Source of the DNA: Limnothrix sp. BL-A-16
Lineage (GTDB): Bacteria; Cyanobacteriota; Cyanobacteriia; CACIAM-69d
DNA: 64,000 nt
Direction: 5' to 3'
NCBI GenBank assembly: GCA_041937175.2
Contig: CP166615.1
Span: forward strand, 2,272,001 to 2,336,000
The notes beneath the pieces were generated by a model that was given only the letters and a program-made list of their open reading frames with translations, had not been told where the DNA came from and ran no database searches. A program made the position numbers and the translations under genes. This document shows, piece after piece, positions 15,186 to 63,148 of this stretch (within the stretch, counting starts at the first letter, position 1; every line of letters starts with the position of its first letter).

Positions 15186-15285
15186 AACAAAGTAAAGACA
15201 ATTGCGGCGCAAGGTGATTAAGCATTTTGTCTTCATCAACTGTTCAGATCCGCAGCCTCTCGATTTTGACGTTTCAAATATCCTG

Positions 15286-42199: not shown

Positions 42200-42255
42200 A
42201 GGTGTCGTCGTTTCGCCGAAAACCCTGATTCCGCCGCGAGCCGATCGTTGGGCAG

Positions 42256-42275
42256 CAAGGGGCTTAAGCCCCTTG
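42256..42275. repeat. REP-like palindrome
   Basis: Perfect CAAGGGGCTTAAGCCCCTTG. Confidence 0.85.
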
Positions 42276-46784: not shown

Positions 46785-47169
46785 AGCGTCAGAGAAGAAG
46801 AACCCAAATTGAAAGATCCGGGAATCAAGATCCGGGAATCAAGACCCAAAAATCAATGAACCAGAGGAATCGCCCAAAGGGAAGCGGCGATTGTCCCTGA
46901 ATCGAGACCGCAACGAATCGAGATTGCAACGAATTCGGTTTGTCACCGGTCAAGTTTGTAACCGGCCCTGAAATCGTCCTTGTGCTCAAGGGGCGATCGG
47001 GCAGCGGCCTTTCCCCTCGTTATCATGGCCTAACCTTGGCTTTTCGCTGGCTTCGCATGAACCGTTTGCCGCGCAAGCGTCATCACCGCGTCATGTCTGT
47101 ACCATAACCCCGTCAAACAAGCTGACTAGATTGGGGTCAAACAGGCCAGAATGGAAAGGACACAGCCCG

Positions 47170-48471
47170 ATGACATTTCGACTGCCGAAAGCTGCCATGA
47201 CATCTCCCAACGATCGCCCCGATCGGGTGCAATTTCAAAATCCCCCCAATCGTTCCGGCGGCGGATCGAAAGCCTTGCTTTACGTTTCCCTGATCCTCTT
47301 TGGGGCGGGGGCTGCTTTGGCAGGGGTGCGGATGGTGTCGCCCAATGCCTGGGGAATTTTAGCGAGTGGGGGTGAACCGGCTTCCCTGCCTAACACCAGT
47401 TCCGTACCGGTGTCGCTGCCGTTGGGATCCGCCACCAGCGCCAATAATCCTGGCAACTTCGTCACCACCGTGGTCAATCGCGTGGGGCCAGCCGTGGTGC
47501 GCATTGACTCCGCCCGCACCGTTCGGAGCGAAATTCCCGGTGAATTTAGCAATCCCTTTTTCCGTCGCTTCTTTGGGGAAGAGGGGCCCGCACCCCAGGA
47601 GCGGGAAACCCGTGGCTCCGGTTCGGGCTTCCTGGTCACCAATGACGGCAAAATTTTCACCAATGCCCACGTGGTGGAGGGAGCCACTTCGGTGACCGTG
47701 ACCCTGAAAGATGGGCGCAAGTTTGATGGCAAGGTGGTTGGGGCAGATTCCCTGACGGATGTGGCGGTGGTGCAAATCAACGCCAAGGATTTACCGACGG
47801 TCAACCTGGGCAACTCTGACCAGTTGCAACCGGGACAATGGGCGATCGCGATCGGGAACCCCCTGGGGCTAGATAACACGGTCACCACCGGCATTATTAG
47901 TGCCACCGGGCGATCGAGCAATCAGGTTGGCGTACCGGACAAGCGGGTCAACTTCATCCAAACCGATGCAGCCATTAACCCCGGTAACTCCGGCGGCCCG
48001 CTGATCGATGAGCGTGGAGCTGTGATCGGCATGAACACGGCTATTATCCGAGGGGCCCAGGGGATTGGCTTTGCGATTCCGATCAACCGGGCCCGCCAAA
48101 TTGCTGAGCAACTGGTGACCAAGGGACGGGCTGATCACGCCTTTGTGGGGGTGCGGATGGTGAAGCTCACGCCCGAACTGAAGCAGCAGATCAACGAAGA
48201 TCCAAACAGCAACGCCAAAATCGAGCTGGATGCGGGGGTGCTGATTGTGCAAGTGATGCCCCGATCGCCCGCTGCGGAAGCGGGTTTGCGCCCCGGAGAC
48301 ACGGTGTTTCAGATTGATGGCAAGGTGGTGGAAGATCCCAGCGAAGTGCAGCAAATGGTGGAAGCCACGGGCACAACCCGTCCTCTCACCTTTGCCATCA
48401 ATCGCAACGGACAAAACCTGTCATTGCAGGTGAAGCCCCAAGTCATGAGTCCCGATCGCGCCAATGAGTGA
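47170..48471 (+). CDS. HtrA/HhoA/HhoB family serine protease with PDZ domain
   Basis: TM anchor, GSGSGF, TNAHVV, DVAVV, IQTDAAINPGNSGGPL, PDZ; start uncertain (47131, 47170 or 47197). Confidence 0.93.
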   Translation: MTFRLPKAAMTSPNDRPDRVQFQNPPNRSGGGSKALLYVSLILFGAGAALAGVRMVSPNAWGILASGGEPASLPNTSSVPVSLPLGSATSANNPGNFVTTVVNRVGPAVVRIDSARTVRSEIPGEFSNPFFRRFFGEEGPAPQERETRGSGSGFLVTNDGKIFTNAHVVEGATSVTVTLKDGRKFDGKVVGADSLTDVAVVQINAKDLPTVNLGNSDQLQPGQWAIAIGNPLGLDNTVTTGIISATGRSSNQVGVPDKRVNFIQTDAAINPGNSGGPLIDERGAVIGMNTAIIRGAQGIGFAIPINRARQIAEQLVTKGRADHAFVGVRMVKLTPELKQQINEDPNSNAKIELDAGVLIVQVMPRSPAAEAGLRPGDTVFQIDGKVVEDPSEVQQMVEATGTTRPLTFAINRNGQNLSLQVKPQVMSPDRANE

Positions 48472-48570: not shown

Positions 48571-50058
48571 TTAGAAGCGATCGACCTCCTCGGGGAATCG
48601 CTGTGCTGGAATCTGAGCATTGGCCGCTTCACCACAGGTTTTGGGTGTAGGAAACACCTTATCAGGATTGGCTAAACGCAAAGGATCAAAGGCCGATCGC
48701 AACCATTGCATCGTCTCCAAATCCGCCGCTGAAAACATATCGGGCATATAGCAGCGTTTTTCCGCGCCAATGCCATGCTCGCCGGAAATCGTACCGCCCG
48801 CTTGCACACAGCGCTTGAGGATTTCGCCGCCCATTTCTTCCACCGCTTCCAGTTGTCCCGGCACGGACTTATCGTATAGAACCAATGGGTGTAAATTGCC
48901 ATCACCCGCATGAAATACATTGGCCACTTTGTAGCCATATTCCTCGCTCAGTTTGGCAATTTCTTGCAAAATCCAAACCAATTTGCCGCGCGGCACAACG
49001 CCATCTTGTACATAGTAATCAGGGCTGACATGGCCAGCAGCGGCAAAGGCAGACTTACGACCTTTCCAGAGTTTAAGCCGCTCTTGAGGATCCGTGGCGA
49101 TCGTAATATTGCGCGCTCCATTTTCGCGGCAAATTTCAGCGACGCGATCGCTATTGGCCGCCACTTCCACCGCCAAACCATCCAGCTCAACTAATAGAAT
49201 CGCCTCCGCATCTCGGGGATAACAATTGGTTTTGGCCACGTCCTCCACCGCATTAATGCTGAGGTTATCCATAATTTCCATCCCACCAGGAATAATCTTG
49301 GCGGCAATGATATCGGCCACGCTCTTGGCCGCTGCATCCATGCTGGTAAAATCCGCTAATAAAACAGCAATCTCATCGGCAGTTTTGAGGATTCTGAGCG
49401 TCACTTCCGTGGCAATTCCCAACGTGCCTTCAGAACCTACAAAAATTCCCGTTAAATCGTAACCAGGCATCTCGGGAACTGTGCTGCCTACCTCGACAAT
49501 TTCCCCATCGGGCAACACCAGTTTTAGACCCAAAACATGGTTGGTGGTTACGCCATATTTGAGGCAATGAACCCCGCCGGAATTCTCCGCCACATTCCCC
49601 CCGATCGAACAAATAATTTGACTCGATGGATCGGGCGCGTAATAAAATCCTGCACCGCTCACGGCCTGGGTCACCCAATTGTTAATCACCCCCGGTTGCA
49701 CCACCACTCGCTGATTATCCAAATCCACCTTTAGGATCTGTTTCATCAAGGCCGTGACAATCAGCACCGAATCCTCGATCGGGAGTGCGCCCCCCGAAAG
49801 TCCCGTGCCCGCTCCCCGCGCCACAAAGGGCACACGAAACCGATTGCAGAGCTTGACCGCCGCCGCCACTTGCTCCGTGGTACGCGGCAACACCACCAGC
49901 GCCGGCCGATGGCGATAGCTGGTTAATCCGTCGCATTCGTAGGTCAGCAGCTCATCCTTGCGACGAATCACGGCCCGATCGCCCAGCGCATTCACAAATT
50001 CCCGGGCGATCGCTTCCCAATCGGGGCGAGTGGCCGATAGCGGCGGTGCAAAAACCAT
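48571..50058 (-). CDS. glcD: Glycolate oxidase/dehydrogenase subunit GlcD
   Basis: RGAGTGLSGGA, YAPDPSSQ, GSEGTLG, HAGDGNLHP, SGEHGIG. Confidence 0.93.
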   Translation of the reverse strand: MVFAPPLSATRPDWEAIAREFVNALGDRAVIRRKDELLTYECDGLTSYRHRPALVVLPRTTEQVAAAVKLCNRFRVPFVARGAGTGLSGGALPIEDSVLIVTALMKQILKVDLDNQRVVVQPGVINNWVTQAVSGAGFYYAPDPSSQIICSIGGNVAENSGGVHCLKYGVTTNHVLGLKLVLPDGEIVEVGSTVPEMPGYDLTGIFVGSEGTLGIATEVTLRILKTADEIAVLLADFTSMDAAAKSVADIIAAKIIPGGMEIMDNLSINAVEDVAKTNCYPRDAEAILLVELDGLAVEVAANSDRVAEICRENGARNITIATDPQERLKLWKGRKSAFAAAGHVSPDYYVQDGVVPRGKLVWILQEIAKLSEEYGYKVANVFHAGDGNLHPLVLYDKSVPGQLEAVEEMGGEILKRCVQAGGTISGEHGIGAEKRCYMPDMFSAADLETMQWLRSAFDPLRLANPDKVFPTPKTCGEAANAQIPAQRFPEEVDRF

Positions 50059-50359
50059 GGTTGGTGATCTTTCTAAAACGGCAGCAAACCTTTACTTACT
50101 ATAACAATTTTGGTCTGCTTAATTTTAATTAGTCTTATACAAGCAAGCTATTAGTATGAAAAATATTGACAGTGGATCACGAGTTAGATTTAAGCACTTA
50201 GCTTGTCGATAATTAAGGAAGAACTATTGATTTTTACTTCAATATTTTTAGGCTGATTTGAGCTTGTCTGATGCTGATTAGAACGCTCAGGCAATCGTAC
50301 CTAGGGCGGCGTTGGGACGATCGGGCTAGAATTCTCGCAAGTGTGGCACGCGGGGCGAT

Positions 50360-53116
50360 GTGGGGCTTGTGATGGATTTTGGATCAATTCTGTCGCCCGA
50401 GAAATGGTGGCTGTTGCTGGTGACAGTGCTGTTGGGCATCAACACGGGGGTGATTTTGCCAGCTCAGTATGATTCATCGGCTCCTGCGCCTCGCAAGTGG
50501 TTGATCATTAGCACTTGGCTTTTGAACGGGATTTTGACAGGGTTGGCGGGGCTGTTGTTTTCACAGGAGAAGCCCAATTTTCAGCTTTGCCAAGGCTTGA
50601 CGATCGGGGGTGCGATCGTGGGTGTTGTGACGCTGGCGATCTTTTTTCGGGGCCCCAAGGCTGTAGTGACAGCGCACGATCGCCGATCGGAGTTGTTGGG
50701 GGTGCTGAAGGAGGAGTATGGCCAGCGGGAAACGGGGGCGGTGTTGGGCAAGTCGATCGCCCCTGTGCCCTTGGAGCCGCCGCGATCGATTCCCTTTCTT
50801 GGCAAGTTGTTCGGGTTTGGGCAGGAGCGATCACTATCGGGGCTGGATGACTTGCTCAAAACGTTTGATGAAGCCCAGCGGCAGGTGTTGATTTTGGGGG
50901 AGCCGGGGGCGGGCAAAACTACGCTGCTGGTGGCGTTGGCGAATCGGTTGGTGCAACGGGCGATCGAGGGCGATCGGGAACCGATTCCGGTGATTTTGGA
51001 GTTGTCGGCTTGGCGGGCGGGCGAGTCGCTGCCCGATTGGATTGTGGCGGAGGTGGCGGAGCGCTATCGGCCGCTGCCGGCCGCGCAGGTGGCGAACTGG
51101 CTGGCTACGGGGCAACTGCTGCCGCTGTTGGATGGGTTGGATGAGCTAAAGGATCGCCAGGGCGCGGCGATGGTGGCGATTAATGAGTGGGTGTCGCAGT
51201 CGCAAAAGTTGGCGGGGGTGGTGGTCTGTTGTCGGCGGGCGGAATATGACGCGGCGGTGGCGGCGGGCGACGCGCCTTTGGAAGAGCGGCTCAACAAGCG
51301 AATTGAGTTGCAGCCGTTGGATGAGGCAACGATTCGCACCCATTTACATGACTGCGAGCGGGATTTTTTATGGGAGAAAATTAAGCAAGATCGCGACGGG
51401 TTTCGCAAGTTGGCAGAGTCGCCGTTGTTGTTGGATTTGATGGTGGCGGCCTATGACAAACCGGGAAAATGGCAACGAGAAGCGCCGCGAAATCCTGATG
51501 ATCTAGCAGCCTATTATCTTGATTGTCGAGATCGTCTTTTAGATGATTATTTTGAAGTGCGGTTGCATAGTGTGCCGCATCCCAAATACAAACCAGCAGA
51601 TACGCGCCGTTATTTGGAATGGTTAGCGCGATTGATGCGCGATCGCAACCAAACGGAATTTTTGATTGAGTATATGCAGCCTGATTTGATTGAGGATCTA
51701 AAAGATCTGAAAGGCTATCGAGACTGCTTGGGATTTATAGCTGCAATACCTCTTGCTCTTGGCTCTTGGTTGCTTGGAGTAGTCCTCAATGAAGAATTTT
51801 ACGGACTCGTATTAGGTCTTGGGATTGGATTACAAGTATTTTGCTCGATGGAGATTCTCTATATTAGAATCTCAAAAACAATTTGGTCTGATATATCTCT
51901 GTTATTTCTTAGGGGACGAATCTTTATACTATTTATTTTTCAATCTTTCTTAAAAGGGGAGTTCATAGGAAATTATTTCTTTGCTCCCTTGCTCATCTTA
52001 ACTTTTTGTGGATATTTTTACGTATTATCTAGTGTTTTCAACATCGAAAACCAAAATCATCTTTCATATTTTCTCATATCAATTCCCTTTCTTTTTATAG
52101 TTGCAGTTGTTGCATTAGGTGCAATTCTTGAAAGTAATTCTTTATACTTAAAAAAGATTTCTTATAAAGAAACAAACGAAGGAACAATAGAGTCAAGAAA
52201 AAGTCTTGCTTTACTAACATTTTTATTTTTTCTACTGTTTTTTATAAATCAGTCAATTTCAACTATTTTTCAAAACAAGTTATCTTGGGAGGTGACTTTC
52301 TTTCATGATATTCCAATTGCATGTATTCTCTCAGGCTTAATGGGTTTTTATTACTTTGGTGGAATTCAGATATTTCAGAAAAAATTACTGTTCATATTTT
52401 TAAATAAAGCCAATCATATCCCCATTAACTATGATGATTTTCTTCAATATGCATCAGATAAGTTAAGTCTACTTAAGAAAAGTGGCGCATACTTTCGTTT
52501 CTATCATGAATTACTCAAGATTAATATGGCTAAGTTCAGTTCACCGGCTTGTCAGCTTGAAGCACCAAGAATATCTTTAAAGAGTAAGTTGATTGCTCTT
52601 CTTATTCAATTGATACTGATTTACTTGTTGATTTTCGCCTGCTTGAATATCAATAGTTATTTTGATTCAAGCAATTCATCATTTCTCAACAGTCTTGACC
52701 TAAAGAAAAGTGATATTGTTTTTCGTAATTCTATAATTAACTCAAGATTCAAAGTGCACAAGAACAGTCTAGTTCTAGTTAATTTTATGATCAAAACAGA
52801 GACTAATCACAGTCATTCCAATTTATCAATAGACCTCATTGGAAAAGTTGTTCAATTACCTGGAGATACAATCAATTTAGGTAATAAATACTTGTTTGCC
52901 ATAAACGGAAAGTCCATAAATGAGATTTATAAAGATGCCAAAACCTGGAGTTCACTATGTTTTGATGGAAAACTTAGAGTTCCTCAAGATTCTTACGTCG
53001 TTCTACTTCAGTGGGTAGACGAACCATGGCTGGTCTTAGTTAAAGAGAAAGACATCCAAACAAAAATTCTCTTTCGGATCTACCCGTTCGATCGCTTCGG
53101 GCCGATCGAGCCGTAA
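50360..53116 (+). CDS. Membrane NACHT NTPase with multi-TM region and C-terminal S26 signal-peptidase-like domain
   Basis: Walker A GEPGAGKTT, Walker B LLDGLDE, PLLL, YFRFYHELL; C-terminus VVQLPGD..INGK..VPQDSYVVL..FRIYPFDRFG. Confidence 0.85.
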   Translation: MGLVMDFGSILSPEKWWLLLVTVLLGINTGVILPAQYDSSAPAPRKWLIISTWLLNGILTGLAGLLFSQEKPNFQLCQGLTIGGAIVGVVTLAIFFRGPKAVVTAHDRRSELLGVLKEEYGQRETGAVLGKSIAPVPLEPPRSIPFLGKLFGFGQERSLSGLDDLLKTFDEAQRQVLILGEPGAGKTTLLVALANRLVQRAIEGDREPIPVILELSAWRAGESLPDWIVAEVAERYRPLPAAQVANWLATGQLLPLLDGLDELKDRQGAAMVAINEWVSQSQKLAGVVVCCRRAEYDAAVAAGDAPLEERLNKRIELQPLDEATIRTHLHDCERDFLWEKIKQDRDGFRKLAESPLLLDLMVAAYDKPGKWQREAPRNPDDLAAYYLDCRDRLLDDYFEVRLHSVPHPKYKPADTRRYLEWLARLMRDRNQTEFLIEYMQPDLIEDLKDLKGYRDCLGFIAAIPLALGSWLLGVVLNEEFYGLVLGLGIGLQVFCSMEILYIRISKTIWSDISLLFLRGRIFILFIFQSFLKGEFIGNYFFAPLLILTFCGYFYVLSSVFNIENQNHLSYFLISIPFLFIVAVVALGAILESNSLYLKKISYKETNEGTIESRKSLALLTFLFFLLFFINQSISTIFQNKLSWEVTFFHDIPIACILSGLMGFYYFGGIQIFQKKLLFIFLNKANHIPINYDDFLQYASDKLSLLKKSGAYFRFYHELLKINMAKFSSPACQLEAPRISLKSKLIALLIQLILIYLLIFACLNINSYFDSSNSSFLNSLDLKKSDIVFRNSIINSRFKVHKNSLVLVNFMIKTETNHSHSNLSIDLIGKVVQLPGDTINLGNKYLFAINGKSINEIYKDAKTWSSLCFDGKLRVPQDSYVVLLQWVDEPWLVLVKEKDIQTKILFRIYPFDRFGPIEP

Positions 53117-53145
53117 AGCAGCGATCAGCCCGAAAGTTTTGAACC

Positions 53146-55086
53146 CTAGGATTCGGCTAGCTCCGATAATTCAAGCCAACGTTCAGTGCCCTGATCAATT
53201 TGGTGACTGAGATCCGCCAGCTTTTGCGATAATTTCTCGACCTCGCTATAGCCGCTAGGGGGATTTTCATAGAGGCGCTTTTCAATCGTCGCTTTCTCCT
53301 CTTCCCACTGGGGCAAATGGGTTTCCAGGTGCTCAAGTTCCCGCTTTTCCTTGTAGGACAATTTGCGCGATCGCCCCTTAGATGAATTGCCTTGATCCGG
53401 CTCCGTCTTAGTTGCAGCCTCAGCCTTCTTCTCAGCCGATCGCCCGTTTTTCTCCGGAGCCTCACTCGCCACATCGGGCGATCGCAAATCCAAATAAACC
53501 GAATAGTTACCGGGATATTGGCGAATCTGGCCGGCTTGCTCAAAGGCGAAGATTTTCTCCACCGTGCGATCGAGAAAATAGCGATCGTGCGACACCACAA
53601 TCACACAGCCGTTGAATTCTTCTAGATATTCCTCCAACACCGCTAAGGTCTGCACATCTACATCGTTGGTCGGCTCGTCCAAAATCAACACATTCGGCGC
53701 TTCGAGCAACACCTTCAGCAGAAATAAGCGCCGCCGTTCGCCCCCCGAAAGTTTGTTGAGAGGCGCATATTGTTGATCAGGTGGAAACAGGAACCGTTCC
53801 AACATTTGGGCCGCCGTGATGATTTGTCCATCGGCGGTTTTCACCAGTTCCGCCGTTTCCTTCAGATAATTCAACACCCGTATTTCGCCCTTATCGGACA
53901 AATCATCCGAGTGCTGATCAAAATAGCCAATCTGAATCGTGCTGCCCCGATCGACCTGGCCCGCCGTCGGTTCCAACTTGCCCATGATCAGGTTCATCAG
54001 GGTTGATTTACCCACGCCGTTACCACCGATGATTCCCACCCGATCGTCCGGTAGAAATTGGTAGGTAAAATCGCGAATCAGCACCCGATCGCCCACTTGA
54101 TAAGTCAAATTCTCTAGCTCGATCACCTTCTTGCCAATCCGCCGGCCCGCCGTGGCAATTTCTACCTTGCCTTGGTTGGCTTTGAACTCCGTTTCGCGCA
54201 TGTCCTGGATCCGATCGATCCGGGCTTTCTGCTTCGTGCTCCGCGCCTTTGGCCCCTTCTTCAACCATTCCAATTCTCGCCGCAACACCCCTTGAAACTT
54301 GCGCTGGCGGCTATTTTCAGCGGTTTCCGCCTCGGCTTTTTTCTCCAGGTAATAGCCATAGTTGCCCGCATAGCTAAACAGATCGCCGCGATCGAGTTCC
54401 AAGATCCGATTGGTCACCCGATCGAGAAAATAGCGATCGTGCGTCACCAACAACAACGCCCCGCGAAATTGTTGGCGTAAATAGTCTTGCAACCAGTTCA
54501 CCGAATCCGCATCCAAGTGGTTGGTTGGCTCATCCATTAACAACAAATCCGGCTGGGCCAACAGCGCCGCTGCCAGCGCAATTCGCTTGCGATAGCCCCC
54601 GGAAAGTGTCCCCACCTTCGCTTCAAAATCCTCAATTCCTAACTGGGACAGCACAATTTTCGCCTGGGTTTCCAGTTCCCAAGCGCCCGCCGCTGCCATC
54701 TTGTCGCCCAAGCTAGCCAACTGAGCCATCAACCGATCGAACTCGGGCCCCGTGGTGTGGCCCAGCCGGTGGGATAGATCCTCGTATTCCCGCACCAGGG
54801 CCATTTGCTCGCCACTGTCGGCAAACACCTGCTCCAGCACCGTGCGATCGGGGTCGAGCGGCGGATCTTGGGGCAAATAGACCAATCGATAGTTAGGGTT
54901 CACCAGCCGATCGCCCCGGTCGATCGGCTCCAGCCCCGCCAGCATCTTCAGCAGCGTGGACTTGCCCGAACCATTGGTGCCAATCAAGCCAATTTTGTCC
55001 GTTGGCTCGATGCTAAAGGTTCCATCCCGCAGAATTTCTTTGATTCCAAAATCCTTGTGGGCATTCTTCAGAGACAGCAGACTCAT
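53146..55086 (-). CDS. ABC-F family ATPase (Uup-like)
   Basis: Two ABC domains (GTNGSGKST, GGNGVGKST), DEPTN twice, HDRYFLD, PKARSTKQKARI linker, C-terminal coiled coil. Confidence 0.93.
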   Translation of the reverse strand: MSLLSLKNAHKDFGIKEILRDGTFSIEPTDKIGLIGTNGSGKSTLLKMLAGLEPIDRGDRLVNPNYRLVYLPQDPPLDPDRTVLEQVFADSGEQMALVREYEDLSHRLGHTTGPEFDRLMAQLASLGDKMAAAGAWELETQAKIVLSQLGIEDFEAKVGTLSGGYRKRIALAAALLAQPDLLLMDEPTNHLDADSVNWLQDYLRQQFRGALLLVTHDRYFLDRVTNRILELDRGDLFSYAGNYGYYLEKKAEAETAENSRQRKFQGVLRRELEWLKKGPKARSTKQKARIDRIQDMRETEFKANQGKVEIATAGRRIGKKVIELENLTYQVGDRVLIRDFTYQFLPDDRVGIIGGNGVGKSTLMNLIMGKLEPTAGQVDRGSTIQIGYFDQHSDDLSDKGEIRVLNYLKETAELVKTADGQIITAAQMLERFLFPPDQQYAPLNKLSGGERRRLFLLKVLLEAPNVLILDEPTNDVDVQTLAVLEEYLEEFNGCVIVVSHDRYFLDRTVEKIFAFEQAGQIRQYPGNYSVYLDLRSPDVASEAPEKNGRSAEKKAEAATKTEPDQGNSSKGRSRKLSYKEKRELEHLETHLPQWEEEKATIEKRLYENPPSGYSEVEKLSQKLADLSHQIDQGTERWLELSELAES

Positions 55087-55194
55087 GCGATCGGGCAGGG
55101 GCTAAACACTACTGTCTATGATTCCACGGCCCGCCCCGATCTCCCCCGTTACCTTTGCTACGATCGACCTGTTTCCCAAACACCGACTAGCCCC

Positions 55195-55617
55195 ATGACC
55201 GCCGCCCTCAGCCCCGCCGATCGCCACAATTACCAAACCCTGCTGGCCGACTATGGCCCCGGTCTGCGGGCGATCGATGCCCTTGATCAACACGATGGCG
55301 ACCTGATCAGCGCCGTCGAAACCCTGTGGAATCAGTCAGAAACTCCCAGCACTTTTGGCAAGGGTCAAAAACTGTGGGAAACCCTGTTAAAAGTCTTGCG
55401 CAAGGAACTCTGTGGCAACGAAGGGGTGCGCGCCCAGTTTCAGGAATACACCAAAAATCCCGGCAGTGCGCCCCTGTTGACGGGCTTGATTGTGTCAGTC
55501 ACCACGGCGGCGGGTTTACCGATCGACCCAGCGATTTCCACAATTGTGGTGTTGTATTTGCTCAAAATCGGTCTGAATGTGTTTTGTGAATACACCGAAC
55601 CCAAACCAGAATCATGA
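55195..55617 (+). CDS. Hypothetical protein (140 aa) with C-terminal hydrophobic hairpin
   Basis: ATG 55195 (MTAALSP); upstream part of the track ORF is antisense to the ABC-F gene; ATGA overlap with the next gene. Confidence 0.7.
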   Translation: MTAALSPADRHNYQTLLADYGPGLRAIDALDQHDGDLISAVETLWNQSETPSTFGKGQKLWETLLKVLRKELCGNEGVRAQFQEYTKNPGSAPLLTGLIVSVTTAAGLPIDPAISTIVVLYLLKIGLNVFCEYTEPKPES

Positions 55618-55973
55618 TCAGTCCATTACTCATCACTGATTCCATCACCCCCGCAACCTGGGAATTGCGATCGCGCCTGATCTGTCATCGTGAGCAAATC
55701 CAGGCGATCGCCGCTGACTACGGCATTAGTCACATGCGCATTTTCGGTTCCGTGGCCCGAGGAGAAGCAACCGCCGAAAGTGATATCGATTTTTTGGTGG
55801 AGATGGAACCCGATCGCAGTTTGCTCGATCGAATTGGCTGCATTCAGGATCTATCGGACTTGTTAAATTGCCCGATTGATGTTGTCACTCTCAAAAATAT
55901 CCGTGAGGAATGGCGCGATCGCATTCAACACGAGGCAATTTCACTGTGTGAAGTCCAACACGATCAAATTTGA
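55614..55973 (+). CDS. Minimal nucleotidyltransferase (MNT/MntA-type antitoxin)
   Basis: IFGSVARGE....SDIDFLV (GS-x10-DxD), DVVT. Confidence 0.88.
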   Translation: MISPLLITDSITPATWELRSRLICHREQIQAIAADYGISHMRIFGSVARGEATAESDIDFLVEMEPDRSLLDRIGCIQDLSDLLNCPIDVVTLKNIREEWRDRIQHEAISLCEVQHDQI

Positions 55974-55984
55974 TTTTGCTGGGG

Positions 55985-56350
55985 TTAATCGATCGCGTAG
56001 CCTGTATATTGTCGAACGGTGGGAGCATGGAAAGCGAGAACAATGTGATCTTTCGGAACTCCCAACTCTGTTAACTCATTGGCAATTCCACCTTCAATGC
56101 CATCATAGTGAATCCAGATTTTTTGGTTCCGAATTTCGGCATGAACTAGGCAACCATGCACTCTCTGATTCTCTTCCCAACCTTCTTGCATGAGCAGGAA
56201 ATGATTGCAATCTTGGCTCACCACTAAGTAGGTCACTACATTTCCATAGCGATAGGGCAACTTGGCATAGTCACCGAGAATTTTCTCTAGGAGCGATCGC
56301 CACTGGTTTAGGTTTTGTCCTTCTTGAGTGTCGAATGCTTCCATACTCAT
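55985..56350 (-). CDS. xisI: XisI family protein
   Basis: HFLLMQEGW..RVHGCLVH..KIWIHYDGIEGGIANEL..GVPKDHIVLAFH; start 56350 or 56344. Confidence 0.9.
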   Translation of the reverse strand: MSMEAFDTQEGQNLNQWRSLLEKILGDYAKLPYRYGNVVTYLVVSQDCNHFLLMQEGWEENQRVHGCLVHAEIRNQKIWIHYDGIEGGIANELTELGVPKDHIVLAFHAPTVRQYTGYAID

Positions 56351-56375
56351 GATTTGATAATAGTTCGGTAGTCCA

Positions 56376-56490
56376 GTAGGTTGGGTTGAGCCTCGCGAAA
56401 CCCAACGCAAGATCTGGGCTATGCGATCAATTACTTTCAAAACATAGCGTATTGATCGTGTTGGGTTTCGCACGGCTCAACCCAACCTAC
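56376..56490. repeat. GTAG-type REP doublet (REPIN-like)
   Basis: GTAGGTTGGGTTGAGCC-TCGCGAAACCCAACGC ... GTGTTGGGTTTCGCAC-GGCTCAACCCAACCTAC; each arm is itself a hairpin. Confidence 0.8.
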
Positions 56491-56600
56491 TGCTCTCAGT
56501 TAACGGTAGCTTCTGCGATCGCTGGTGGTTGATTTCGACATCCCGATCGCCTTGGTGAGGTTGTTAGGATGGGGCGAGTGATGAACCGATCGCTCCACCT

Positions 56601-59600
56601 ATGCCGACCATTCAGATTCGCGAAGTTGCTGCCGTTGTCGATGGGTTCACTGCTGAGGTGACGATCGCCCAGGATCTCAACACGAGCCGCGCCTATCCCG
56701 TCACGTTGCGGAATCCGTTTCAGCACAACGAAGAAGCGGATCTGGAATTCTTCTTTGAAGAGTGGTATCAGTTCCCGACGCTCGATCGGGAGCGGGCCGA
56801 TCGCGCCCGCCTGGCGATCGCTCAATATGGCCAAGAGCTGTTCGAGCAACTGTTGAAGGCGAATTCCGATGCCTACGCGGACTATCGGGACTTGCGGCGA
56901 TCGCAGGCCTTTGAGCGGGGCACGGTGCTGATCGAAATCATCGGCTCGCCGGAGTTTCAGGGGTGGCATTGGGAAGCCCTGCGCGATCCCGATTTGCCGG
57001 AACCGCTGTCACTGATGACCCCGATCGTCCGGCGCGACCCCCGGCGATCGGTTGCCAATCCGGCGCGGGTTGAGCCGTCTGGCTGGCTGAATTTGTTGGT
57101 GGTGACGGCGCGGCCCGGTTGGAGCCAGGATGTGAACTACCGGACGATTTCCCGGCCGTTGGTGGAGGCGATCGCCAATGCTCAGTTGCCCGTGAAGGTG
57201 GAGCTATTGCGGCCCGGCACTTGGGAAGCGCTCGATCGCCACCTGCAAGATGTCGGGCCGGGGTTCTATCACGCGGTGCATTTCGATTTGCATGGGTCGG
57301 TGCTGACTTACAAAGAAGCTAGCAAACTGCTCGATCGCCCCGCCCAAGCCAGCGGCCAAACCTTTCGGCGCGGTTATGGTTTGGGGGATTTGCCTGAATA
57401 TGACGGCTATCGGGCATTTCTGAGCTTTGAAGGAGAAGCGGCGGGCCAGTCAATTTTGGTGGAAGCGGCGGAGGTGGCAAATCTGCTGAAGACCCGGCAA
57501 ATTCCTCTTTGCATTTTGAATGCTTGCCAGTCTGCCAAGCAGATTAGCGGTGGCGAGGGGCCGGCGGCGGAAACCAGCCTGGGGGCCAAGCTGCTGGAGG
57601 CGGGGATGCAGGCGATCGTGGCCATGCGCTATTCGGTGATGGTGCGGGCGGCGGAACTGATGATGACGCGGTTCTATCAGGCGCTGTTTACCGAGCAGCC
57701 GGTGATGGAGGCGATTCGGTTGGGGCGGCGGGAGCTGTGGCAAACCAAAACCCGCCCCGGCCGGTTCAACATGCCGATCGAGCTGGAGGATTGGCTGTTG
57801 CCGGTGGTCTACAGTGGCGCGACGGTGAATTTGAATTTGCGGCCCCTGACGGCCGACGAAGAGGCGGCCCGGTGGACGGCGGAGGCCGATCGCGATCGCT
57901 TTGAGCCGCCGATCTATGGCTTTGTGGGACGGGACACGGACATTTTGGAGCTGGAGCGGCGGTTGTTGCAGCCCGATCGCAACGCTCTGTTGTTGCAGGG
58001 GATGGGCGGCACGGGCAAAACCACGCTGCTGCGCTATTTGCGCGACTGGTGGCAGCGGACGGGGCTGATTGAGCGATCGTTCTATTTTGGCTATGACGAG
58101 CGGGCCCACAACCTGGAGCAAATCGCCGCCAGCATTTTTCAGCAGCTTGATCCCGAGGGGTGGTTGCGGTTCCAGTCGTTCCCCTTGGCGGCGCGGTTGA
58201 CCAAGCTGACCCAACTGTTGCGATCGCGCCGCTATGCCTTGATTCTGGACAATTTGGAATCGGTGACGGCGGCGGCCCTGTCGATTCCCAACAGCCTGCC
58301 GGAGTCGGAGCAGCGGGCCTTGGCCCAATGGTTGCGCGGGTTGGTGGGGGGCAAAACCCTGATTTTGTTGGGGTCGCGGGGGGCGGAATCCTGGCTGGAG
58401 CCGGTCTATGGAGCCAATCGGCTGGGGTTGCGGGGGTTGGATCGGGATGCCCGCACGGAGCTGGCCCAAAAAATTCTGGAGCGACAGGTGGGCGACTCGC
58501 GCCGCATCGCTCAGATCAAGGATGATCCGGCCTTTGGGCAGTTGATGAAGCTGTTGGATGGCTATCCATTGGCGATGGAGGTGGTGTTGGGGAATCTGAA
58601 GCGCCAAACCCCCAGCGAAATTGTGGCGGGGCTGGCGGCGGCGGATGTGAATCTGGACAATCCGCAGGCCCAGGGCGACAAAACCCAAAGCATCATTGCT
58701 TGCATTGACTATTCCCACGGGGCGCTGTCGGCAGCGGCCCAGCAGGCATTGCTCTGTTTGGCTCCCTTCAGTGGGTTTATTAATTGCGATGGCAATTGCT
58801 TGGAACAGTATGCGGCGCGGTTGGCGGAGCAGCCGGCCTTAGCGGCTTGGTTGGGGGATTCGGGGGCAGAAATTTTGGCGGCGGCGGTGCAGGAGGCGGT
58901 GGATTGGGGGCTGTTGTCGCCGATTTCGCCGGAAGTACCGATCTTACTGACCATTCAGCCGACGTTGCCCTATTTCCTGAAGCTGAAGTTAGCGGAACGG
59001 GACAAAGAAACCCAAGCGGCGATTCGCAATGCCTTTAAGCAGCACTACATCGGCTTGGCGAATTACTACAACAATCGATTGCTGAAATCAAAGGAGCCAG
59101 ATCAGCGGCAATTGGGGATCTTTTTTGTGCGGCAGGAGTATGAAAATTGCTATGCAGCGCTGCAAATTTGCCTAGAGAAATTCGAGACGGCAGATATTTT
59201 CTTTTGCCTATTCCAATATTTGTACGTGACCCAAGATTGGCCGACTGCCAAGGCTTTGGCGGAACAAGTTCGGGCGGCCCATGCCCAATATCCTCCCGAA
59301 ATTCGTCAGGGCAAAATCGGCTTGGAAATTACGATGTCGCTCGATCGCCTGGCCTCTTGCCAATTGGAACTCAAGGACTATGCAGGCGCTCGGGCGGCTT
59401 ATTTGGAAGAACTCCAACAACTCGATCAACTACAAGGCGTTGACCGTCGCCAAATCTTAGCCAGCCAAGCCAGCACCTACCACCAGTTGGGAAGGGTTGC
59501 CCAGGGCTTGCGGGAGTATGCCGAAGCCCGCCGCTGCTACCAACAGGCCCTCGAAATCAAAATCGAGTTCGGCGAGTCTCCAGAGGAGAGGCTTCGCCAA

Positions 59601-60581
59601 CGCTACGAGCAAGCTGGCACCTACCACCAGTTGGGAATCGTTGCCCAGGAATTGCGGGAGTTTGCCGAAGCCCGCCGCTGCTACCAACAGGCCCTCGAAA
59701 TCAAAATCGAGTTCGGCGATCGCTACAGCCAAGCCAGCACCTATGGTCAGTTGGGAAGTGTGGCCCAGGAATTACGGGAGTTTGCCGAAGCCCGCCGCTG
59801 CTACCAACAGGCCCTCGAAATCAAAATCGAGTTCGGCGATCGCTACAGCCAAGCCAGCACCTACCACCAGTTGGGAATCGTCGCCCAGGAATTGCGGGAG
59901 TTTGCCGAAGCCCGCCGCTGCTACCAACAGGCCCTCGAAATCAAAATCGAGTTCGGCGATCGCTACAGCCAAGCCAGCACCTACCACCAGTTGGGAATCG
60001 TCGCCCAGGAATTGCGGGAGTTTGCCGAAGCCCGCCGCTGCTACCAACAGTCCCTCGAAATCAACATCGAGTTTGGCGATCGTTACGAGCAAGCTGACAC
60101 CTACCACCAGTTGGGAATCGTTGCCCAGGAATTGCGGGAGTTTGCCGAAGCCCGCCGCTGCTACCAACAGTCCCTCGAAATCAACATCGAGTTTGGCGAT
60201 CGTTACGAGCAAGCTGACACCTACCACCAGTTGGGAAATATTGCCTATCTACTGCGGGAGTTTGCCGCAGCCCGCCGCTGCTACCAACAGGCCCTCGAAA
60301 TCAACATCGAGTTCGGCGATTCCTATAGCCAAGCCAGCACATTCAATCAGCTAGGGTTGCTGTCTCAAGCAACGGAAAATTTCCCCAAAGCTCTCGATTA
60401 TTTCCTGCAAGCGCTGCAAATTTTTGCCCAATTTGAAGACACCCACCACGCCCAAGTTGTCCTCAGAAACATCGCCAACCTTTACCAACAAACCCAAGAC
60501 CCCAACATCCTCACCGCCGCCGCCGAAATCCTCGGTTGCACCCCCGACGACCTCGCCACCGCCTTCACCCAACAGCCGTAG
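56601..60581 (+). CDS. CHAT (caspase-like) protease - STAND/NB-ARC-like NTPase - TPR protein
   Basis: WHWEAL, VHFDLHG (His) and LNACQS (Cys) dyad; GMGGTGKTT Walker A, ILDNLE Walker B, GYPLAME; C-terminal 40-aa TPRs. Confidence 0.9.
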   Translation: MPTIQIREVAAVVDGFTAEVTIAQDLNTSRAYPVTLRNPFQHNEEADLEFFFEEWYQFPTLDRERADRARLAIAQYGQELFEQLLKANSDAYADYRDLRRSQAFERGTVLIEIIGSPEFQGWHWEALRDPDLPEPLSLMTPIVRRDPRRSVANPARVEPSGWLNLLVVTARPGWSQDVNYRTISRPLVEAIANAQLPVKVELLRPGTWEALDRHLQDVGPGFYHAVHFDLHGSVLTYKEASKLLDRPAQASGQTFRRGYGLGDLPEYDGYRAFLSFEGEAAGQSILVEAAEVANLLKTRQIPLCILNACQSAKQISGGEGPAAETSLGAKLLEAGMQAIVAMRYSVMVRAAELMMTRFYQALFTEQPVMEAIRLGRRELWQTKTRPGRFNMPIELEDWLLPVVYSGATVNLNLRPLTADEEAARWTAEADRDRFEPPIYGFVGRDTDILELERRLLQPDRNALLLQGMGGTGKTTLLRYLRDWWQRTGLIERSFYFGYDERAHNLEQIAASIFQQLDPEGWLRFQSFPLAARLTKLTQLLRSRRYALILDNLESVTAAALSIPNSLPESEQRALAQWLRGLVGGKTLILLGSRGAESWLEPVYGANRLGLRGLDRDARTELAQKILERQVGDSRRIAQIKDDPAFGQLMKLLDGYPLAMEVVLGNLKRQTPSEIVAGLAAADVNLDNPQAQGDKTQSIIACIDYSHGALSAAAQQALLCLAPFSGFINCDGNCLEQYAARLAEQPALAAWLGDSGAEILAAAVQEAVDWGLLSPISPEVPILLTIQPTLPYFLKLKLAERDKETQAAIRNAFKQHYIGLANYYNNRLLKSKEPDQRQLGIFFVRQEYENCYAALQICLEKFETADIFFCLFQYLYVTQDWPTAKALAEQVRAAHAQYPPEIRQGKIGLEITMSLDRLASCQLELKDYAGARAAYLEELQQLDQLQGVDRRQILASQASTYHQLGRVAQGLREYAEARRCYQQALEIKIEFGESPEERLRQRYEQAGTYHQLGIVAQELREFAEARRCYQQALEIKIEFGDRYSQASTYGQLGSVAQELREFAEARRCYQQALEIKIEFGDRYSQASTYHQLGIVAQELREFAEARRCYQQALEIKIEFGDRYSQASTYHQLGIVAQELREFAEARRCYQQSLEINIEFGDRYEQADTYHQLGIVAQELREFAEARRCYQQSLEINIEFGDRYEQADTYHQLGNIAYLLREFAAARRCYQQALEINIEFGDSYSQASTFNQLGLLSQATENFPKALDYFLQALQIFAQFEDTHHAQVVLRNIANLYQQTQDPNILTAAAEILGCTPDDLATAFTQQP
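59463..60340 (+). repeat. Intragenic array of about 7 near-identical 120-bp TPR-coding repeats
   Basis: Units in register at 59601, 59721, 59841, 59961, 60081, 60201, with partial flanking units. Confidence 0.95.
59572..59603. mobile_element. Very small structured element inserted in frame into a HIP1 site
   Basis: Other junctions read GGCGATCG(C/T)TAC; this one reads GGCGA-GTCTCCAGAGGAGAGGCTTCGCCAA-CGCTAC (net +24 nt). Confidence 0.7.
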
Positions 60582-60705
60582 GGTGCATGGGAGAACACTT
60601 GGCCATTAACAATCCTTTCCCTACACCTCCCATGCACCGCAATCGATCGCGCAAAAACAACAATCCTCGATCGATTGAATAACCACAACCCTCGGTGCGT
60701 GGGAG
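60578..60705. repeat. GTAG-type REP-like element, right arm incomplete
   Basis: GTAG-GGTGCATGGGAG (60578-60593) / CTCCCATGCACC (60627-60638); CAATCGATCG / CGATCGATTG; GGTGCGTGGGAG (60694-60705). Confidence 0.65.
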
Positions 60706-60726
60706 AGCAAATCAACCTTATGGCAA

Positions 60727-61947
60727 TCACGGGCGATCAACCCCAAACCCTTCCGCTTTCAGCATAGCTAAAGTTGCAATTGCTGCTTGGGTTTCTGCTT
60801 CCTTGATGGTCTTCCCTATCCCTTGGCCATACACTCGGTTCTGAAGCTTGACTTCTACAGTCCAAGGCTCCGCCCCTGGAACTGGACAGTAATCTACCAT
60901 GCCATATTTACTTGCATTTTCTGGCTGTTGTAGAAATTCTTGAAGAGCATTTTTAGGATGTCGGGCCGTTGCACCTTCGTAGCCCAGTTTATCGATCACT
61001 TGATCAAGCTTTGGCCAGAAGAATGCCTGAACTGCTGCCAAACCAGAATCAAGATAGTAGGCTCCAATCAATGCCTCAAAGGCATTAGCAAGAACTGAAT
61101 TCTTTTGACTAATTTTCTGATCACGCTTAAGCCCATTTCCTAGTCTCAGACAATCACCCAGATCCAATTGACTCGCAAAAAGCTCGAGTTGCGTATTTTC
61201 CACAATTCGAGATTTAATTTGAGTCAATTCTCCTTCGGTTAGGTACGGGTGTTTATTATGAATATACTCGGCCACTACCAATCCCAAAACGGAATCGCCT
61301 AAAAACTCCAGCCGTTCATTGTCATCGCCACTGCTTGGGTGTTCATTTTTATAAGACCTATGGGTTAAAGCCTGTTTCAGGAGGCTGAGATTCTGGAACG
61401 GAATTTGAGAAATGAGGCGATCGCACTGCTCTTGAAACTGTCGGTCTGCCTGATTGTTAGGGTTTAGACCCCATTGCTGCGCTTGGTTTTGATGACTCAA
61501 GGCTAGCAAAGCTTCATTTTGCTGGGTGACTACCTCTTCCAATAGAGGCGATCCGATCGCCTGTAGTAACCGACGAATGCTATCGAGCGATCGATAAACA
61601 TCTGCGGTGGGAAATTCTGATTCATGGGCCCACTGGTTACGAATTTCCTGAAGTTCATTGACTAGAACTTTGTCGCTTTTGCTTAATCGGTCTTTAAAGA
61701 CCTTGGTGTAATGCTTATCTAGAATTGTTAGTAAATTGGCTACATCTTCACTAATGATTTTGATGGGAGAATACTTTTTTAAAATTGGCTGGGCTGTTCG
61801 TAGCTTGGGTAAGAAATGTAGGGATTTTGTAGCCCAATCATCCCCATATTCTGTCTGCATGGCTTCCTGAATGAAAGGAAACAATCCCTGGCGCAAAAGC
61901 TCTAGGCCACGGGTAATCGTTTCCTTTCCCCAGTTTTGGTTTGACAT
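60727..61947 (-). CDS. rnc: Swt1-like HEPN domain fused to ribonuclease III and dsRBD
   Basis: N-terminal RNQWAH (RxxxxH); ALTHRSY, NERLEFLGDSVL, AFEALIGA; dsRBD PKNALQE...GIGKTIKEAETQAA. Confidence 0.85.
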   Translation of the reverse strand: MSNQNWGKETITRGLELLRQGLFPFIQEAMQTEYGDDWATKSLHFLPKLRTAQPILKKYSPIKIISEDVANLLTILDKHYTKVFKDRLSKSDKVLVNELQEIRNQWAHESEFPTADVYRSLDSIRRLLQAIGSPLLEEVVTQQNEALLALSHQNQAQQWGLNPNNQADRQFQEQCDRLISQIPFQNLSLLKQALTHRSYKNEHPSSGDDNERLEFLGDSVLGLVVAEYIHNKHPYLTEGELTQIKSRIVENTQLELFASQLDLGDCLRLGNGLKRDQKISQKNSVLANAFEALIGAYYLDSGLAAVQAFFWPKLDQVIDKLGYEGATARHPKNALQEFLQQPENASKYGMVDYCPVPGAEPWTVEVKLQNRVYGQGIGKTIKEAETQAAIATLAMLKAEGFGVDRP

Positions 61948-62005
61948 GATGTGAATTCACAATGACTAATTTCATGGTAGTCAGCAATTCACATTTCGTG
62001 GGAAC

Positions 62006-63148
62006 CTAGCGGCGACGATCGCCCCCAAATCGTCCAACTCGGCCGGTGGGTTTGCCCAGGTTGGCGCGGAGTTGGCCACAGGCTGCATCCGACTCCAGGC
62101 CCCGGGTGCGGCGGACACTGACGGCGACGCGGCGATCGTCCAGGGTTTGCATGAAGTCCCGCACGCGCATCGGGTCAGGGCGCTGGTAGTCTACCTCCGC
62201 GATCGGGTTGTAGGGAATCAGGTTGACGTGAGCTTGGAACCCGCGCAGCAACTCCGCTAGCTCGGCGGCACAGTCGCGGCTGTCGTTGACCCCCGCCAAC
62301 AGGATGTATTCAAAGGTGACGCGGCGGCCGGTTTCGGCGGCATAGTCGCGGCAGTCCTCGATCAGCTCCTCGATCGGGTATTGGGCGGCGCTGGGAACGA
62401 TCGACTCACGGATTTCCTGGTTGGGCGCGTGGAGGCTGACAGCCAGGGTGGCTTGCAACCGTTCGTTGGCGAGCTGCCGAATCCGGCCGGGAATACCGAC
62501 AGTGGAAATGGTGATGTAGCGCTTGCCGATGCCGATGTCTTGGTTGAGCGATCGCGTTGCACTCAGGACGGCGGCGGGGTTATGTAGCGGTTCGCCCATG
62601 CCCATAAACACCACATTGCTGACCCGGCGATCGAAGTCCTCTTGGACAGTCAGCACCTGATCCAAAATTTCCGATCGCGATAGGTTGCGCACAAAGCCGC
62701 CTTTGCCCGTGGCGCAAAAGTCGCAGGCCATGGCACAGCCCACTTGGGAGGACACACAAACCGTCAGCCGATCGCGGGTGGGAATGCCGACGGTTTCCAC
62801 GATCTGCCCGTCGGCCATTTTCAGCAGAAATTTTACGGTTCCGTCATGGCTCTCGGAGCGGTGGTGCAGCTCGGAGCGGCCGATCGGAATGTCGGCGGCC
62901 GCTTCCCGCCAGTTTTTGGGGAAAACGGTGATATCCATCAGCGATCGGGCCCCGCGTTCGTAGATCCATTGGTGGAGCTGCTTGGCACGGTAGGCGGGCT
63001 GTCCCTGGTCTTTCACCCATTGGGTGAGTTCCGTGAGGGAGCCACCCAACAGCGGCGGCAGGGGCTGACGATCGGGACGGGACTGCAAAATCTGCGAATC
63101 GGTTTGGGCAGCGGTGTTCAGGGCGATTGGGGCGGGAGCCATGGTCAA
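62006..63148 (-). CDS. rlmN: 23S rRNA (adenine2503-C2) methyltransferase
   Basis: [40 protein letters not shown]. Confidence 0.96.

Follow-up and report, generated by a model that had tools for sequence, protein, structure and literature searches.

Several kinds of described proteins come close to the genes considered here. Bacterial NACHT ATPases (bNACHT) bear the Walker B signature D[GAS]hDE, and the available part of the preprint by Kibby et al. (10.1101/2022.07.19.500537) mentions a class in which the NACHT module holds a transmembrane (TM) insertion and describes rapidly diversifying C-terminal regions. Apaf-1-like proteins of multicellular bacteria join a caspase-like protease to a STAND ATPase and repeats, according to the portion of the source at hand (PMC13581612). 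A "two-headed RNase" composed of HEPN, RNase III, and a double-stranded RNA-binding domain (dsRBD) was predicted computationally in 2013, with an example from Lyngbya, in the sections of Anantharaman et al. used here (PMC3710099). Two-gene modules are also relevant, namely the type VII toxin-antitoxin (TA) pair MNT-HEPN (MntA/HepT) and the pair XisH/XisI. Here, we analyzed the stretch of about 11.5 kb between glcD and rlmN on the 4.56-Mb chromosome (GC 0.552) of Limnothrix sp. BL-A-16 (G000), within a window of 64,000 nucleotides (G000:C1:2272001-2336000). The stretch contains, in order, genes for a TM-NACHT protein (P0003), an ABC-F ATPase, the product of a 140-amino-acid open reading frame (ORF; P0001), a solo MNT nucleotidyltransferase, and a solo XisI, then an inverted repeat, and then genes for a CHAT-STAND-TPR protein (P0004) and a HEPN-RNase III-dsRBD protein (P0002).

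Genes were annotated from an ORF listing with Pfam, NCBIfam, and PADLOC scans, and relatives were compared by blastn and protein searches; G002 is a sister species, G001 a further congener, and other G and L labels denote the genomes and loci of relatives. All genes and domains named in a preliminary description of the window, which had proposed a variable immunity hotspot, were confirmed at or near the positions given there. Most components are of known kinds, that is, cyanobacterial STAND proteins, TA remnants, and the two-headed RNase predicted in 2013. Our best explanation, which we consider likely as a whole, is that the stretch is not one system; it would comprise two variable slots, one between glcD and the ABC-F gene (slot A) and one between the ABC-F gene and rlmN (slot B), around a core ABC-F gene. 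These slots would hold lineage-specific, single-gene modules of conflict type, each gained, lost, or remodelled on its own. Slot A would carry the membrane-embedded NACHT ATPase, and slot B the small membrane protein, the CHAT-STAND-TPR and HEPN-RNase III-dsRBD proteins, and the solo MNT and XisI, the last two of which would be leftovers of two-gene modules.

Gene content between glcD and rlmN in congeneric genomes

The preliminary description had counted the ABC-F gene among those of the island, which its distribution contradicts. An orthologue was present in 26 of 31 relatives (E ≤ 1e-150; 58 to 97% identity; best 39 candidates per genome scored), with G001 among the five misses. The NCBIfam models Uup and EttA each gave about 530 bits, under their equivalog cut-offs, and Pfam detected a Uup-type C-terminal domain. 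Judged by these matches, ABC-F is encoded by a conserved, single-orthologue housekeeping gene of the core genome and is not island cargo.

The G002 genome was collinear with the window on both sides (91 to 94% nucleotide identity; amino acid identities of 98% for GlcD and 99% for RlmN). The interval from glcD to the ABC-F gene measured 3,072 bp, including the NACHT gene, in G000 versus 276 bp of unrelated sequence in G002, and the position of the MNT gene comprised 331 bp versus 51 bp with a small hairpin-type repeat. In G002, xisH (PF08814, 5e-53) lay directly upstream of xisI, where G000 has the inverted-repeat element. Two parts of the CHAT-STAND gene matched G002 in nucleotide sequence, 56361-58987 (89.7% identity) and 60480-60603 (91.9%), and the TPR block that separates them did not; at the protein level, identity was 83% for residues 1-936 and 38% for residues 1050-1326. 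Past 60603, the G002 contig ran on into DNA homologous to G000:2486108-2490582, marking a synteny breakpoint. Beside rlmN, G002 had a gene for an AAA ATPase with matches to PDC-M38A (1.4e-72) and AbiLi (1e-46), and next to it a partner gene truncated by the contig end. This AbiL-like/PDC-M38 pair occupies the position of the G000 HEPN-RNase III gene. The pair is located at L011 3-1537 (G002:C53), and the contig break falls within a repeat that is copied at G000:3867943 and 798659.

The rlmN region of G001 was about 81% identical in nucleotides (RlmN, 91% in amino acids), and the HEPN-RNase III gene still adjoined rlmN there; no homologue of P0004 (E ≤ 1e-20) or of P0001 was found in this genome. 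The G001 NACHT allele sits at a different locus. Blastn aligned it to G000 in two pieces, 50304-51688 (93.1% nucleotide identity) and 53049-53120 (87.5%), and left the part in the middle unmatched; the core DNA near it was 75 to 89% identical, mostly 78 to 81%. Because the allele occupies another locus and its 5' 1.4 kb exceeds core DNA in identity, the NACHT gene is, on this comparison, mobile. A single contig end from run X2, at 50067, resembled the "empty-site" sequence of G002, which is only a hint of a presence/absence polymorphism of the NACHT segment.

Cargo at the glcD and rlmN flanks thus differed among the three genomes compared, with a rearrangement at the right edge. As read from these alignments, every gene of the stretch except that for ABC-F is accessory and turns over independently; in our view, this speaks for regional variability and against a functional link between the genes. 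The earlier wording "variable" is borne out by G002, which has neither the NACHT nor the MNT gene, has XisH, and carries another TPR block and the AbiL-like pair in place of HEPN-RNase III. The term "orphan TA parts" also fits, with MNT lacking a HEPN partner and XisI lacking XisH. Functional linkage had been called unproven, rightly so, and the failure of the genes to co-occur even argues against it. Coordinates of all features are given in Table 1.

Table 1. Features of the glcD-rlmN stretch and its flanks (window positions)
Feature	Position	Strand	Basis or remark
HtrA-like protease	47131-48471	+	ORF listing, Pfam/NCBIfam
glcD, conserved left flank	48571-50058	-	TIGR00387, 578.4 bits (cut-off 567.9)
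AT-rich region upstream of the TM-NACHT gene	50065-50359		Within the 3.07-kb segment missing from G002
TM-NACHT protein P0003, 918 amino acids	50360-53116	+	Pfam NACHT PF05729, 8.4e-10; PF10502 Peptidase_S26, residues 747-882
Swapped AT-rich sensor block (TM insert, winged-helix domain, TM anchor, S26-like domain)	51688-53049	+	G001 allele comparison, GC3
S26 signal-peptidase-fold domain, no Ser/Lys dyad	52667-53113	+	Profile, AF2/Foldseek; predicted extracytoplasmic
Uup/EttA-type ABC-F ATPase	53146-55086	-	Pfam ABC_tran (twice), ABC_tran_Xtn, ABC_tran_CTD
P0001, 140 amino acids, hydrophobic C-terminus	55195-55617	+	Stop overlaps MNT start (ATGA)
Solo MNT nucleotidyltransferase	55614-55973	+	PF01909, 1.4e-13; PADLOC PDC-S09, 8e-36
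XisI, 119 amino acids	55985-56344	-	PF08869, 1.2e-35
Inverted-repeat (MITE/REP-like) element	56361-56490		Self-inverted match; 6 partial copies elsewhere in G000; sits where G002 has xisH
CHAT-STAND-TPR protein P0004, 1,326 amino acids	56601-60581	+	Pfam CHAT PF12770, 2.3e-18; NACHT, 1.3e-6; NB-ARC, 1.3e-6; TPR_12, 2e-54
P0004 domains	CHAT 57162-57755; NTPase 57921-58481; TPR 59394-60506	+	Pfam
Tandem array of near-identical 40-amino-acid TPR repeats	59601-60340	+	TRF: 6.2 copies of a 120-nt unit, 91% matches, score 1159; within the block divergent from G002
Repeated element of ~140 nt	60576-60717		4 partial copies elsewhere in G000; at the G002 synteny breakpoint
HEPN_Swt1-RNase III-dsRBD protein P0002, 406 amino acids	60727-61947	-	Pfam HEPN_Swt1 PF18731, 1e-30; Ribonucleas_3_3 PF14622, 2.6e-33; dsrm PF00035, 1.6e-9
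P0002 domains	HEPN 61552-61911; RNase III 61018-61386; dsRBD 60760-60957	-	Pfam
rlmN, conserved right flank	62006-63148	-	TIGR00048, 458 bits (cut-off 290)

The CHAT-STAND-TPR and HEPN-RNase III proteins

P0004 carries the motifs HFDLHG (at 227) and NACQS (at 307), which, from caspase-fold motifs, we take to be the His/Cys dyad of the CHAT protease, followed by GMGGTGKTT at 467 and a Walker B segment, LILDNLE, at 547 that does not have the NACHT signature. Six to seven near-identical 40-amino-acid TPR units point to a recent repeat expansion. An orthologue was found only in G002 among the five closest genomes (2 of 6 with G000 included), and residues 1-933 had no PDB match by sequence at E ≤ 0.01. 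The protein shares its CHAT domain, central STAND P-loop NTPase, and C-terminal repeat sensor with the Apaf-1-like proteins of multicellular bacteria, although its sensor consists of TPRs and theirs of a WD40 propeller, as far as the part of that source at hand describes them (PMC13581612). The TPR sensor of P0004 would bind a trigger, releasing protease activity.

The architecture of P0002 is identical to that of the two-headed RNases, with a HEPN domain of the Swt1/Abi2 group and an intact Rx4H motif; we found no architectural difference in the available sections of the 2013 study (PMC3710099). Its match to TIGR02191 scored 199.6 bits (cut-off, 166.25), and its motifs were RNQWAH at residues 103-108, ERLEFLGD at 211, and NAFEAL at 288. 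The HEPN motif RNxWAH (R, N, W, A, and H) was invariant in all eight fusions aligned, and the RNase III residues E211, E214, D218, and E291 were invariant in these and in one canonical enzyme. The Asp of "DxFEA" was replaced by Asn in seven of the eight fusions (Asn288 in P0002) and by Ala in the other, and it was present in the canonical paralogue and in Thermotoga maritima RNase III (1o0w).

Work on the Escherichia coli and Aquifex aeolicus enzymes identifies the DxFEA Asp as one of the four metal ligands of RNase III; the other three correspond to E214, D218, and E291, all retained in P0002. Given this role, cleavage of double-stranded RNA (dsRNA) by P0002 is expected to be altered and perhaps weakened. 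The protein would dimerise via its RNase III domain and bind dsRNA, and both the HEPN Rx4H motif and the altered RNase III site would serve to cut RNA. The conserved replacement of Asp by Asn hints at a tuned RNase III module, perhaps one for dsRNA recognition over cleavage, which would bear on how the fusion works. This family-wide change, the frequency of the fusion, and its variable contexts are what the present analysis adds to the 2013 prediction; the part of the literature from 2014 onward that we covered yielded no experimental study of a HEPN-RNase III fusion.

Full-length fusions occurred in 4 of 41 relatives and, across the class, in 9 of 401 sampled genomes, which represent 8 of 169 genera; one of these nine fusions contains an internal TGA. 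Their neighbours were rlmN (G000 and G001), TPS-CHAT and Uma2 genes (G033), SLT and amidase genes (G016), a canonical rnc in tandem (G055), glutaredoxin-like and Mur ligase genes (G205 and G185), genes for a 1,795-amino-acid helicase and a DUF4058 protein (G212), and XisH/XisI with Uma2 (G118). In G055 (L035 7250-9191), the fusion gene lies 47 bp upstream of a gene for a canonical, 230-amino-acid RNase III that keeps the catalytic Asp, an arrangement that could be a snapshot of the fusion family arising from rnc. A Swt1-type HEPN domain also opens proteins of ~1,130 to 1,160 amino acids in five relatives (G001:C14:1834-2253, G016:C1:2480185-2480613, G023:C1:2814616-2815047, G026:C1:693432-693857, and G027:C1:42763-43200). 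These are probably members of the Ava_2192 HEPN-AAA+ (DUF499) family of restriction-modification-like operons, as the sections of PMC3710099 at hand describe it.

Alternatively, the genes could be accessory without being immune. The STAND proteins would then be signalling or developmental cell-death switches, and the HEPN-RNase III protein a paralogue of rnc with a specialised role in RNA processing. STAND proteins such as AfsR act as regulators, and G000 has two more RNase III paralogues (three in all); the tandem with rnc, the conserved glutaredoxin-Mur ligase neighbourhood, and the lack of any match to a validated defence model would also be consistent with such roles. We regard this alternative as rather unlikely, since the scattered occurrence of the fusion (9 of 401 genomes) and of P0004 (2 of 6 close genomes), the low GC content, the swapped sensor halves, and the AbiL-like pair as replacement in the sister species are patterns reported for immune receptors.

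The TM-NACHT protein and its S26-like domain

The newest item of the neighbourhood is the NACHT protein P0003, a membrane-threaded NTPase with a predicted outward-facing pseudo-signal peptidase and a swapped, foreign-looking sensor cassette. Its database record begins at the ATG at 50372 and gives 914 amino acids. The order of parts was N-terminal TM helices, NACHT nucleotide-binding domain, multi-TM insert, winged-helix motif, TM anchor, and an S26-like domain, an end that the preliminary description did not mention. Walker A reads GEPGAGKTT (residues 180-188; G183, G185, K186, and T187 invariant in the family alignment), and Walker B reads LLDGLDEL (256-263; D258, G259, L260, D261, and E262 invariant), which fits the NACHT signature as DGLDE. 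Past residue ~450 lie about six hydrophobic segments, followed by the family motif PxNYxxFLxYA...GGxYRFxHxLL (FRFYHELL at 712 in P0003). P688, Y691, F694, L695, F714, and H716 were invariant in 19 sequences and are all kept in P0003. We infer that this motif is the winged-helix part of the NACHT module, so that the TM bundle would be an insertion inside that module. A further TM segment (738-769), preceded by Arg/Lys, leads into a beta-rich domain.

The family of NACHT proteins with a TM insert was common in cyanobacteria and Chloroflexota, and the winged-helix motif occurred in 64 of the 79 loci retrieved. P0003 shares its Walker B signature and its abundance in cyanobacteria and filamentous bacteria with the bNACHT sensor class termed "TM regions", to which, on the part of the Kibby et al. 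preprint at hand, it adds a TM anchor and a dyad-less S26 fold after the winged helix. No phage test of the P0003 clade was found in the portion of the literature examined. Three more NACHT paralogues, in ORFs of 796 to 1,060 amino acids, were present in G000 (C1: 2382250-2382807, 942281-942874, and 4513609-4513953), one of them only ~46 kb beyond the end of the window.

The C-terminal domain of P0003 matched PF10502 at 23.9 bits (cut-off, 22.9), and a family profile found solved type I signal peptidases in the PDB at 4e-31. An AlphaFold2 (AF2) model of residues 640-918, built from a 27-row alignment, had a mean pLDDT of 73.6, and with it as query all 14 Foldseek matches listed within ranks 1 to 15 were signal peptidase I or SipA (E from 3e-3; probability up to 1.00). 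At the aligned catalytic Ser and Lys columns, P0003 has Leu and Gly. Both residues were kept in none of 20 rows of the NACHT-linked clade (8 with a Pfam NACHT domain, the rest shorter or fragmentary) versus all 7 free-standing peptidase-like matches; within the clade, two rows kept Ser, paired with Arg, and one kept Lys, paired with Ile. Box E of signal peptidases has the motif GDNRxxSxDSR, which was unrecognisable in P0003. From these residues, the S26-like domain appears to be a pseudo-enzyme and no active member of S26.

SipA of Streptococcus pyogenes is inactive. The domain of P0003 has the same fold as, and clear sequence homology to, this protein and the type I signal peptidases SpsB and LepB, and like them is preceded by a TM anchor, whereas it lacks the Ser/Lys dyad and is fused to a STAND ATPase. 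The PDB title of SipA (4n31 and 4k8w) names a signal peptidase homologue essential in pilus polymerisation.

An exhaustive search of a representative library with the C-terminal half of P0003 returned 83 proteins (E ≤ 1e-3; best identity, 38%). Among 15 of these run through Pfam, 7 had NACHT and S26, 6 S26 only, and 2 NACHT only. The S26 tail was present in 1 of the 79 related GTDB loci, L058 (5296-8172), where an uncultured member of the Chloroflexaceae encodes a 959-amino-acid TM-NACHT protein with the same S26-like tail; the tail is thus not confined to cyanobacteria. Neither "signal peptidase" nor "S26" appears in the main texts (supplements aside) of the Kibby et al. preprint, Kaur et al. 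2020 and 2021, and the 2026 Nature STAND survey.

The AT-rich patches mentioned in the preliminary description are real (50065-50280; 51700-53050, GC 0.28 to 0.32; and 61000-61950, GC 0.42 to 0.44), and the main one lies inside the NACHT ORF, a placement that had been missed. GC content at third codon positions (GC3) fell from ~0.8 in codons 180-250 to 0.12 to 0.37 past codon ~450. Relative to an intact relative, P0006, P0003 was 78 to 98% identical over residues 1-450, 8 to 26% over 451-650, and ~40% in the winged helix; identity was 20 to 26% in the S26-like domain and returned to 83% in the final 18 residues. Metagenome contigs from four runs, one of which may be the source sample, matched parts of the gene with no differences, including 52397-52684 and 51961-52329; as these were contigs only, depth and uncovered parts are uninformative.

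Could the AT-rich half be decaying or junk DNA fused by accident, making the gene a pseudogene-like chimera? Window 52001-53000 has a GC of 0.299, the lowest of 9,078 chromosomal 1-kb windows; in G001, the allele falls into several separate frames after residue ~495; and a word-based search with the AT-rich half found only P0003 itself. Nevertheless, the frame stays open for ~440 codons where, as estimated from base composition, stops are expected about every 12 codons, all six family-invariant winged-helix residues and the S26 fold are retained, and identical contigs occur in four metagenome runs, which makes the chimera very improbable. Given this open frame, the kept residues, and the folded model, we argue that the AT-rich half would be functional. 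Among the other most AT-rich kilobases, L119 (G000:C1:1171501-1172500) encodes a sulfotransferase-like protein and L120 (G000:C1:3787001-3788500) a 760-amino-acid protein with an N6-DNA-methylase domain; both genes are probably foreign as well.

With two to three N-terminal TM helices and the ~6-helix insert between its nucleotide-binding and winged-helix parts, the ATPase would be placed at the inner membrane face, and one more TM helix would carry the dead S26 fold to the outer face. The pseudo-peptidase and TM bundle would then sense an envelope or periplasmic cue, and ATP-dependent oligomerisation would make the TM helices perturb the membrane. A more specific proposal is that P0003 is an outward-looking NLR-like receptor whose dead signal-peptidase domain and TM bundle bind an envelope cue, for instance a peptide that derives from a phage or resembles a signal peptide, and switch the membrane-threaded ATPase. 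New specificities would be gained by swapping in whole sensor cassettes, in this case from a foreign donor of very high AT content, while both ends of the gene stay conserved. We put it forward as a doubtful, speculative model.

Small genes, borders, and the reading of the stretch

P0001 belongs to an uncharacterised family of ~144-amino-acid proteins (51 of 301 cyanobacterial genomes; Atlas cluster n = 242) and among the close genomes compared was present only in G000 and G002. It had no Pfam match and a weak match to PDC-M35B (4e-4), and 10 homologue loci had no constant neighbour. A role as fixed partner of MNT was rejected: 2 of the 10 loci had an MNT-like match within ~650 bp, a weak one (6e-4) in one case, and in G002 P0001 occurs without MNT. 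A role as an adaptor sharing a domain with P0004 was likewise rejected, as BLASTP found nothing (best E, 0.37). A Gly/Ala-rich antisense frame accounts for the 63-amino-acid minus-strand ORF at 55102-55293.

The MNT protein scored 53.3 bits against NCBIfam MntA, under the equivalog cut-off of 60; no orthologue was found in four close genomes (best identity, 47%), and G000 had nine MNT-like matches in total, including this gene. It shares the MNT fold with MntA of type VII systems and differs in that the partner gene for a DUF86-type HEPN protein is missing: no HEPN gene lies beside it, and downstream is the stop of xisI on the other strand, with 11 bases between the ORFs. An overlapping plus-strand ORF (55876-56193) had no family match. 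The adjacent XisI shares its family with the XisH/XisI pair, and G000 has no xisH directly upstream.

The REP-like elements noted earlier correspond to the inverted repeat and the ~140-nt element, each with few partial copies. At least two further families of ~150-nt dispersed repeats resembling miniature inverted-repeat transposable elements (MITEs) occur in the window (42220-42310 and 15061-15188; via L011 6657-6830 and L013 8597-8745), with some 60 to >90 partial chromosomal copies each by blastn. HIP1 palindromes (GCGATCGC) are frequent. Mobile-element borders were rejected: the locus had no tRNA and no Rfam match, the Pfam scan found no integrase or transposase among flanking ORFs, and the NACHT gene had no convincing target-site duplication, only 16-mers containing HIP1. 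Promoter and terminator scans gave scores no better than those of shuffled sequence. By Pfam scan, the wider flanks carry cytochrome oxidase, Na/H exchanger, histidine kinase, GlmU-like, trpF, and ccsA-like genes, and a second low-GC patch (window 8001-9500, G000:C1:2280001-2281500; GC 0.365 to 0.375) belongs to the 40 chromosomal 1-kb windows lowest in GC.

A single integrated defence system, in which the CHAT-STAND-TPR protein might, say, detect a trigger and switch on HEPN-RNase III under regulation by MNT or XisI, is extremely improbable and was rejected, as was an operon, on the grounds of gene orientation and lack of co-occurrence. In its favour, the genes lie close together, a CHAT-domain gene (TPS plus CHAT; 1,577 amino acids) lies 129 bp upstream of HEPN-RNase III on the same strand in G033, and XisH/XisI adjoin HEPN-RNase III in G118. 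Against it, the CHAT-STAND and HEPN-RNase III genes converge in G000 and so cannot form one operon, G002 has CHAT-STAND without HEPN-RNase III, G001 has HEPN-RNase III and, as noted, no P0004 homologue, a CHAT gene is beside the fusion in 2 of 9 loci (G000 and G033; the G001 contig ends ~400 bp beyond the gene), and genes for CHAT, XisHI, and Uma2 proteins abound in cyanobacteria.

Two variable slots around a core ABC-F gene remain our preferred reading, and several observations weigh against it or against its immune component. The comparison leans mainly on two congeneric genomes, both fragmented (100 to 110 contigs), and the rlmN-side difference of G002 coincides with a larger rearrangement, such that "same slot" is only approximate. 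The gene products are known here from DNA, and hydropathy and charge are the basis for the predicted topology of P0003. No gene fully matches a validated defence model in PADLOC or NCBIfam: P0003 scored 38.7 bits against NCBIfam EruA (cut-off, 1000), P0004 matched no named Avs or defence STAND model (PADLOC, generic TPR and SAVED_CHAT at 0.003; NCBIfam TPR-region models below cut-offs), and P0002 had no PADLOC match at all. Elsewhere, HEPN-RNase III genes lie mostly among housekeeping genes, which fits RNA metabolism as well as defence. The "immunity hotspot" of the preliminary description therefore holds in part. Variability and conflict-type domains are present, whereas a role in immunity is inferred from domain analogy; in the PADLOC check that had been suggested, no validated defence system matched in full, and the sole strong match was that of MNT to the candidate family PDC-S09.

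Both STAND genes share an allele structure, with a kept effector/NTPase half, a replaced sensor block, and a kept 3' end, and so offer a specific, testable instance of bacterial sensors being exchanged like cassettes. If the receptor model for P0003 is true, an extracytoplasmic pseudo-signal peptidase on a STAND/NLR-like ATPase would take NLR-type sensing beyond the cytoplasm and into the envelope.

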